The notes under the pieces were generated by a model that saw only the letters and a list, made by a program, of their open reading frames with translations, did no database searches and was not told the origin of the DNA. Shown one piece after another: positions 5,796-5,848 of a stretch of DNA of 52,438 bases (within the stretch, counting starts at the first letter, position 1; each line of letters starts with the position of its first letter). Source of the stretch: an uncultured Lachnospiraceae bacterium (GTDB taxonomy: Bacteria > Bacillota > Clostridia > Lachnospirales > Lachnospiraceae). The DNA is taken from the NCBI GenBank assembly GCA_948943595.1, contig CARBBL010000001.1, forward strand, positions 1-52,438, given 5' to 3'. The position numbers and the translations under genes were made by a program.

Positions 5796-5848
5796 CTGGC
5801 GGGCCGCATGGCCATCCATACTATGAAAGTCGAAGACTTTCATAGTAA
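5796..5848 (+). repeat. palindrome-containing dispersed element, copy a (core ATGGCCRTC-N-CTATGAAAGT-N5-ACTTTCATAGTAA)
   Basis: It aligns with 17315-17365 and 38349-38399. It contains the perfect palindrome tatgaaagtcgaagactttcata. Confidence 0.7.

Follow-up and report, generated by a model that had tools for sequence, protein, structure and literature searches.

The question raised by this locus is why a short palindromic sequence recurs at three places beside mutually unrelated genes, and whether it is a regulatory site held in common by those genes or a repeat that has been dispersed among them. The window, i.e., the entire 52,438-nt stretch of an uncultured Lachnospiraceae genome that was analysed here, is AT-rich (33–40% GC) and carries nearly all of its genes on the minus strand. 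The three copies (hereafter c1, c2, and c3) were recovered at the positions reported in the initial annotation (5796–5848, 17315–17365, and 38349–38399, respectively), together with the palindrome of variable spacer that it had ascribed to them: perfect with N5 in c1 (CTATGAAAGT-cgaag-ACTTTCATAG on the plus strand), N5 with one mismatch in c2 (ACTTTCGTAG), and N8 with one mismatch in c3 (ACTTTCATAA). The ATGGCC box is likewise found in all three, ahead of the palindrome on the plus strand, with a 1-nt deletion within it in c3. The pattern ATGGCCRTCNNNACTATGAAAGT, in which 20 bases of the box and arm are specified, matches c1 and c2 against an expectation of 0.00 (100 shuffles), and the likeness of the three copies cannot be due to chance (0 expected). 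The genes named around them were also borne out by Pfam (ParB, 5914–6822; DUF4446, 4965–5492; MIF/tautomerase, 37890–38234), which further confirmed ParA and ADP-ribosylglycohydrolase as neighbours, and c2 does lie within the 5′ end of the membrane-protein ORF at 16430–17389.

The extent and number of the copies required revision. The repeated unit is ~85 nt long rather than ~50 bp, as delimited by BLAST and nhmmer for c1 (5764–5848), and the three copies are joined by a fourth, degenerate and partial one at 3590–3642 on the minus strand. As argued below, c1–c3 are very probably copies of a small non-coding, non-autonomous dispersed repeat, here termed family F, and not a regulatory site; family F is an undescribed family of an ordinary, well-known kind.

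Read on the minus strand, the unit begins with (T)TTACTATGAAAGT-loop-ACTTTCATAGTA, continues through GGATGGCCAT and a variable middle module, and ends in CATGATGnGAG-TTTACTAT. The palindrome of the family is perfect over 12–13 bp (TTACTATGAAAGT-(5 or 8–9 nt)-ACTTTCATAGTAA) and has a CTTCG-like or AAAGAACA-like loop, and the conserved box reads GGATGGCCAT(G/A)CGGCC, also given as TGGATGGCCAT(G/A)CGGCC. The middle module is of type A (CGCCAGACGGCAGGCTG) or type B (TGAAATGATATATGGCATTTCAGGAATTG), or is deleted; at least three interchangeable forms occur, two of them with a hairpin of their own, and both ends of the unit are kept in internal-deletion variants (e.g., L035:3452–3510). The boundary is marked by a direct repeat of TTACTAT, often lengthened to the 13-mer TTACTATGAAAGT, and the inserted unit amounts to 78 bp, or to 85–86 bp with the shared terminal motif counted at both ends. 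The six bases 3′ of the terminal TTTACTAT are GAAAGT-like (at least 4 of 6 positions) in 8 of 26 terminal copies, compared with a background of 4.9%, which fits a preference for targets resembling the whole 13-mer and fits truncated next units as well. Three copies in the metagenome-assembled genome MGBC139783 (L013:3460–3495, L021, and L028:2500–2536) are preceded by a shared extra sequence, GTG(G)TGTCTGATGACAGACATGGGGG, which forms a small hairpin, closes with GGGGG-TTTACTAT in the manner of a unit tail, and may be a further module of the family.

The copy c1 (5764–5848, minus strand; nhmmer E = 1e-24) is a full unit with module type A, in which the hairpin arms lie at 5819–5830 and 5836–5847 and the 3′ direct repeat TTTACTAT at 5764–5771, all on the minus strand (ATAGTAAA on the plus strand for the latter). 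It is located in the 421-nt spacer between parB and the DUF4446 gene (5493–5913), of which a BLAST search with the spacer found only 5764–5848 to be repeated elsewhere; ~335 nt of this spacer lie outside the repeat. Relatives with a 76–78% identical DUF4446 have a parB–DUF4446 gap of only 12 nt, and their 20-kb loci are devoid of family F copies, so that c1 resides in lineage-specific DNA. Moreover, c1 is 94–95% identical to copies in MGBC139783, but 76% identical to c2 of its own genome. All same-species metagenome contigs break inside c1, as is the behaviour of assemblers at multi-copy repeats. An isolated extra arm motif, an exact match to CTATGAAAGT, is found 30 nt upstream of c1 (5879–5888, minus strand); it is not repeated with the unit and may be the relic of an older one. 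The adjacent parB gene suggests a ParB-binding parS site as a reading of c1, and this was rejected: Firmicute parS is TGTTTCACGTGAAACA, from which c1 differs in both half-site order and sequence, and the copies elsewhere are not tied to parB.

The third copy, c3 (38304–38399, minus strand; nhmmer E = 2.4e-13), is also a full unit, with an 8-nt loop flanked by the arms of the inverted repeat (38366–38378 and 38387–38399, minus strand) and with module type B, which forms the hairpin CCTGAAATG...CATTCCAG. After it comes the beginning of a second, truncated unit (TTTATTATGAAAGATAAAGAA, ~38284–38311), and c3 is fixed in 8 same-species contigs. Overlapping its 5′ end, a near-consensus sigma-70 promoter (38393–38422, minus strand; 11 of 12 positions, 18-nt spacer) is aimed at the tautomerase gene; its −35 box (TTGACA) belongs to the flank and its −10 box (TATTAT) to the 5′ arm of c3, the 3′ direct repeat of which has the same C-to-T variant. 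It is therefore possible, judging from these matches, that c3 donates the −10 box to a tautomerase promoter. Between the histidine-kinase and tautomerase genes, a long near-perfect palindrome at 38444–38498 (TTATTCACAACACAAAT...ATTTGTGTTGCAAATAA, with the inner hairpin TCATTTGC-gaat-GCAAATGA) resembles a terminator acting in both directions, or an operator. The decayed copy at 3590–3642 (minus strand; nhmmer E = 6.3e-5) corresponds to model positions 31–83 and lacks the 5′ hairpin; the ribosome-binding site for seryl-tRNA synthetase follows ~20 nt downstream of it, and this relic is also present in same-species contigs.

The distribution of the unit in other genomes was surveyed with an exact core-pattern scan (one genome per species), which returned 41 loci. 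Two of these, in Shewanella and in an alphaproteobacterium, are chance matches without the rest of the unit, and the other 39 fall in six uncultured Lachnospiraceae or Eubacterium genome bins. With an nhmmer profile, 75 copies were counted at 49 sites including the window, 72 of them at 46 sites in the six bins, where conservation of the core is overstated because the seed loci had been chosen by the exact core pattern. MGBC139783 alone contains at least 57 copies, a lower bound given that the 8-kb stretches around exact seeds were covered. Some units stand alone and others form head-to-tail arrays of 2–6 with periods of 70–90 nt, adjoining units overlapping by the TTTACTAT motif; the longest array has six units (locus L009), some arrays contain near-identical adjoining units (L011 and L022), and micro-duplications are seen within a loop in L028. 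The small dispersed repeat, which the initial annotation had offered as its second reading, is upheld, among other things by the copy number of MGBC139783 and by the arrays. Family F is rare in the JGI metagenome collection, and no match was obtained in plasmid and phage collections (blastn, distant mode) or in a pattern scan of IMG/VR; a literature search by topic and by literal sequence strings returned nothing on it. Family F has come to occupy many intergenic positions across several gut Lachnospiraceae.

The most informative copy is c2, which occupies 17282–17365 on the minus strand (17275–17365 with the outer direct repeat) inside the gene at 16430–17389. Its hairpin is at 17337–17363, and its two direct repeats (TTACTACGAAAGT at 17353–17365 and TTACTATCAAAGT at 17275–17287), also on the minus strand, start exactly 78 nt apart. 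Upstream of the insert, the host ORF (minus strand, 319 aa) retains the ancestral start, preceded by a good ribosome-binding site that is likewise ancestral (AGAGGAattATG). Its N-terminus, MMQAFLT, is homologous to the MLQxFLT of 289-aa homologues, and is followed by 26 extra residues before the protein rejoins the homologues at LSKLAV; the homologues lack precisely those 26 residues, and the DNA of two homologue loci is uninterrupted at this point (TTT CTA ACA GTT TTT CTA TCA AAA). Accordingly, c2 is an exact 78-bp in-frame insertion that adds 26 aa after codon 10 without a stop. In the gene, it reads ACAAAG-TTACTACGAAAGT-tatcg-ACTTTCATAGT...GTGAAT-TTACTATCAAAGT-TGGCAG, in which the left 13-mer has the G of the element and the right 13-mer the C of the gene, as part of a TCA serine codon conserved in the homologues. 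Since the right 13-mer encodes the conserved Leu-Ser-Lys, it is gene sequence; with the left repeat being of the element type, we infer that the empty site was TTACTATCAAAGT, which matches the element's own arm at 12 of 13 positions, and that the junction lies within TTACTA(T). The comparison at the sequence level thus shows a clean 78-bp insertion of c2 into a pre-existing TTACTATCAAAGT resembling the 5′ arm of the element. The consensus unit has one stop in the host frame (TTA CTA TGA), where c2 has CGA, as do other copies in L010 and L032, and the 26 residues would accordingly be translated within the host protein. This protein has no Pfam match, and some of its homologues are tagged PF20197. 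All same-species contigs carry c2.

These findings bear on the interpretation preferred in the initial annotation, in which the palindrome is the operator of a dimeric transcription factor, or a shared cis-regulatory element, that co-controls the DUF4446, membrane-protein, and tautomerase genes. A perfect inverted repeat of 11–13 bp with a short spacer is indeed operator-like, and the copies in the window are all on the gene strand, either 70–270 nt ahead of a start codon or at the 5′ end of a gene. The uniform orientation claimed for the copies therefore stands in the window, whose genes are almost all encoded on the minus strand in any case, but does not extend beyond it: both orientations occur elsewhere, mostly antisense to genes, and of the sites between co-directional genes 17 are antisense and 6 sense, so that the orientation is not fixed. 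With local GC skew as a proxy, the model strand is the C-rich strand at 33 of 45 sites (33 vs 12). In total, 47 of the 49 sites are intergenic, many copies lie 0–30 nt from a gene end, and an all-vs-all BLASTP comparison of the ORFs in the 41 loci revealed as recurrent neighbours only generic paralogues (ABC transporters and two-component systems). Placement and orientation of the further copies relative to genes are thus essentially random, the very outcome that the initial annotation had set against its own proposal. An operator is rendered exceedingly unlikely by these observations, by the fact that other genomes contain the unit dozens of times and in tandem, with mutually unrelated flanking genes, and by conservation that spans the whole 85-nt unit beyond the palindrome. 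In addition, a loop of 5 vs 8–9 nt would shift the phasing of the half-sites, c2 interrupts a coding sequence and is absent from the homologues, and at the orthologous parB–DUF4446 junction family F is absent, the 12-nt gap of the relatives leaving no room for an operator. A quite different account, in which the copies are not mobile and arose by local duplication, slippage, or gene conversion of an ancestral sequence (as in minisatellites or MIRUs), would accommodate the near-identical adjoining units in L011 and L022, the micro-duplications in L028, and the fixation of the copies within the species, as well as the failure to find a transposase. Nonetheless, we regard it as very improbable, given that the copies occupy at least 46 separate sites on many contigs beside unrelated genes, that c2 is a clean one-unit insertion which the homologues lack, and that c1 is far closer to the copies of another bin than to c2. 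Within the window's species, every strain sampled has the full set of copies, and no insertion polymorphism was seen; mobility is accordingly deduced from the comparison between species only.

The folding of the unit raises the further alternative of a structured RNA with a function at the place of its transcription: a leader, a riboregulator, the product of a small RNA gene, or a hairpin that travels on a repeat (cf. REP and BOX) and stabilises 3′ ends or terminates transcription. Single copies fold with z-scores of −1.9 to −5.5 (c1, −29.5 kcal/mol, z = −4.2; c3, z ~ −4), and the consensus with −37 kcal/mol (z = −5.5). The sole structure common to all modules, according to RNAalifold, is the 5′ palindrome (hairpin 1), the rest differing by module, and no consensus structure across the modules was obtained for a second hairpin. 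Hairpin 1 is 95% paired over 49 distinct copies, with double changes at 4 pairs vs 0.6 in shuffles, figures that are biased by the 3′ arm having been fixed in the seed pattern. Wobble types on the model strand (8 G-T vs 15 A-C) exhibit no strand asymmetry, and hence no single transcribed strand is favoured; the data on hairpin 1 are compatible with a role in RNA, in single-stranded DNA, or as a palindrome in duplex DNA alike. Besides the stable folds and the few compensatory changes, the RNA reading can draw on the many copies situated close to a gene end and on the terminator-like appearance of hairpin 1 and its flank on the plus strand at c1 and c2. We judge it improbable all the same: the window has no match in Rfam (Rfam 15) at the gathering threshold, and c1 and the six-unit array gave chance-level miRNA and CRISPR-DR matches only (E ≥ 0.07) in a permissive search with E up to 10; RNAalifold backs hairpin 1 only; the wobble pairs lack strand asymmetry; both orientations are seen; the element has no U-tract of its own; and a requirement at the DNA level would keep the palindrome equally well. 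The leader-RNA hairpin mentioned in the initial annotation has no support in particular, in view of the two orientations, the position of c2 within a coding sequence, and that of c1 in a lineage-specific spacer. An intrinsic terminator was rejected on account of the AT-rich stem with 3–4 GC pairs, which is followed by the tail ATGGATGG on one strand and by variable flank on the other, and the matches of a terminator scanner at c1 and c2 (plus strand) depend on the local flank. A CRISPR array was likewise dismissed, because the whole 70–90-nt period is conserved between adjoining units, leaving no unique spacers.

Returning to the dispersed repeat, insertion of family F is likely to be specific for the TTACTAT motif, although our confidence in this point is lower than that in the repeat itself; it would involve either a 6–7-bp duplication or insertion beside TTAC/TAT. 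TTACTAT flanks every copy, and at c2 fits a 6–7-bp duplication of a specific target or insertion beside it, so that the repeated motif may be a target duplication or element-borne sequence, either being compatible with the sequences. As each inserted unit would present a perfect new target, re-insertion would explain the head-to-tail arrays and their ~78-nt periods; alternatively, the arrays could have been built by unequal recombination or slippage. The palindrome probably serves as the recognition structure for a putative trans-acting enzyme. The most plausible candidate would be a hairpin-binding single-strand enzyme of the HUH/Y1 class (RAYT or IS200/IS605 type), which we put forward tentatively, as an unlikely yet concrete possibility, with a conventional transposase as the alternative. 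No transposase domain was detected by Pfam among the 20 window ORFs scanned, no transposase ORF recurs in the 41 loci, and no autonomous parent element was found in the window or in those loci. Hairpin-only scans for such a parent in metagenome and viral collections yielded four loci, all of them ordinary family copies, or nothing. A TnpB gene near a homologue locus (L074) was considered and set aside, its flank having no similarity to family F.

Family F is accompanied by other repeats in the window. A sister family of 65 nt has at least nine copies there on both strands, and is more abundant in the window than family F; its members include an array at 44357–44584, copies at 38678–38794 and 33663–33716 on the plus strand, and copies at 9099–9160, 12074–12135, and 47766–47830 on the minus strand. 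Its sequence comprises GTGAAAT-n5-ATTTCAC, TCATCCTGATTTGTAG, GCCCGCCAAAGCGGGC, and AGATGGGAGTTAG, with a REP-like GTAG-GCCCGCC-aaa-GCGGGC, and its modules follow the order of those of family F (palindrome, linker, GC hairpin, and GATGGGAGTT). The alignment of the 65-nt consensus with family F is better than that of all 500 shuffles (z = 5.5), and this kinship places family F, as one branch, in a larger superfamily of repeats within the genome. Shorter hairpin modules at 8377–8577, 9038–9094, 16391–16448, and 47870–47973 join the 65-nt family in different combinations. Also present are an 80-nt unit twice in tandem at 52267–52426 (99% identical), a pair of 141-nt repeats (1046–1186 with 11931–12071; 93%), and a true 128-bp miniature inverted-repeat transposable element (MITE) at 21458–21585 (plus strand) and 7740–7867 (minus strand), found as well at L032:7178–7305, L035:2316–2447, and L016:3049–3156. 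The MITE is 96–98% identical between the window and MGBC139783, and has terminal inverted repeats of ~18 bp, GT(T/A)AC(T/A)(A/G)TTCAGCCAT, and varying 8-bp target duplications (ACAAATTC and AAGGGTTG); one of its ends, GTTACTAT, equals the heptamer of the family F direct repeat, probably by chance. The intergenic DNA of this genome is a mosaic of small repeats.

In size range, multiple copies, lack of coding capacity, intergenic location, stable folding, and the conservation of both ends around an interior that varies, family F resembles classical MITEs (Correia/NEMIS and ERIC). Membership was rejected for want of terminal inverted repeats: the inverted arms of family F adjoin at the 5′ end as hairpin 1, and the 5′ arm recurs at the 3′ end as a direct repeat, the 3′ arm at c2 being the ancestral Ser-Lys-Leu coding sequence. 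Target duplications of MITEs are fixed in length and variable in sequence; the copies of family F are flanked by the constant TTACTAT, which may or may not be a duplication, and the 128-bp MITE of the window, with its inverted ends and varying duplications, provides the contrast within the same DNA. The MIRUs of mycobacteria are 40–100-bp units that form short intergenic tandem arrays in one orientation to the operon and are translationally coupled. Small ORF-like frames in the family F units, with an SD-like GGGAG at unit junctions, 7 nt ahead of an ATG, recall these; they differ in that family F is found in both orientations, has periods (70–90 nt) that are not multiples of 3, and does not conserve the small ORF. 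For the same reasons, a small peptide (MKVFDFHSMDGHAA.., with the SD-like GGGAG upstream in arrays) was rejected, c2 having ACG for ATG and c3 being frameshifted.

Closer parallels are found elsewhere. BOX, RUP, and SPRITE of Streptococcus pneumoniae are small, non-autonomous, modular, hairpin-rich, intergenic, and clustered with other families (PMC10969869). Family F shares with them a Firmicute host and modularity, and the window also mixes several repeat families. It shows no similarity to them in sequence. In BOX (A-Bn-C), the B module alone is repeated, whereas family F repeats the whole unit head to tail; RUP is equipped with terminal inverted repeats and derives from an IS630-type parent, neither of which was found for family F. 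Rickettsia palindromic elements (RPEs) are short palindromic dispersed repeats without coding capacity of their own that occur in frame in genes and are translated as extra residues (PMC10969869). The in-frame position of c2, with the host frame kept, is a functional resemblance without sequence homology and does not imply membership: RPEs are ~150 bp long, belong to alpha-proteobacteria, and are mostly intragenic, whereas only about 1 in 50 family F sites (c2) is clearly intragenic, and tandem arrays are common. With REP/BIME-RAYT and IS200/IS605, family F has in common a palindrome by a short conserved motif, a mosaic of modules, arrays, the lack of terminal inverted repeats, insertion beside a fixed short motif, and a moderate strand bias, all by analogy only. 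A fixed TTAC/TAT stands at the foot of the family F palindrome, TTAC being the target of IS608, and GTAG is found in the 65-nt sister family only. REPs are 20–40 nt long, typically GC-rich, and carry a conserved 5′ GTAG, in contrast to the AT-rich palindrome of family F, and genomes with REP/BIME systems encode a cognate RAYT (Y1_Tnp), in most cases with the repeats on either side of the gene. The nearest analogies would thus be REP/BIME-RAYT and IS200/IS605 in mechanism, BOX in modularity, and RPE in in-frame insertion. Extending the first of these, it is conceivable, if rather unlikely, that family F and its 65-nt sister represent a Firmicute counterpart of REP/REPIN-RAYT, in which a domesticated HUH/Y1 enzyme would excise and paste single-stranded 78-nt units with a single hairpin, cutting at TTAC|TAT at the hairpin foot and re-inserting them at sequences that mimic the arm.

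For annotation, the sites of family F should be masked as repeats and not reported as a regulon or RNA motif, and effects on adjoining genes, such as the additional residues at c2 and the −10 box at c3, would be by-products of the landing site. For assembly, family F breaks the metagenome assemblies of this species exactly at c1. For the biology of the group, an abundant but poorly studied gut clade gains in family F a set of small repeats that had not been described, and c2 offers a rare clean comparison with an empty site, in which a 78-bp unit has entered a sequence mimicking its own end, as an RPE-like in-frame insertion into a Firmicute membrane protein. A testable mechanism is suggested by the likeness of the target to the element itself and by the head-to-tail arrays; if the REPIN-like scheme were true, these elements would target themselves, build arrays, and occasionally be written in frame into the proteins of gut Lachnospiraceae.
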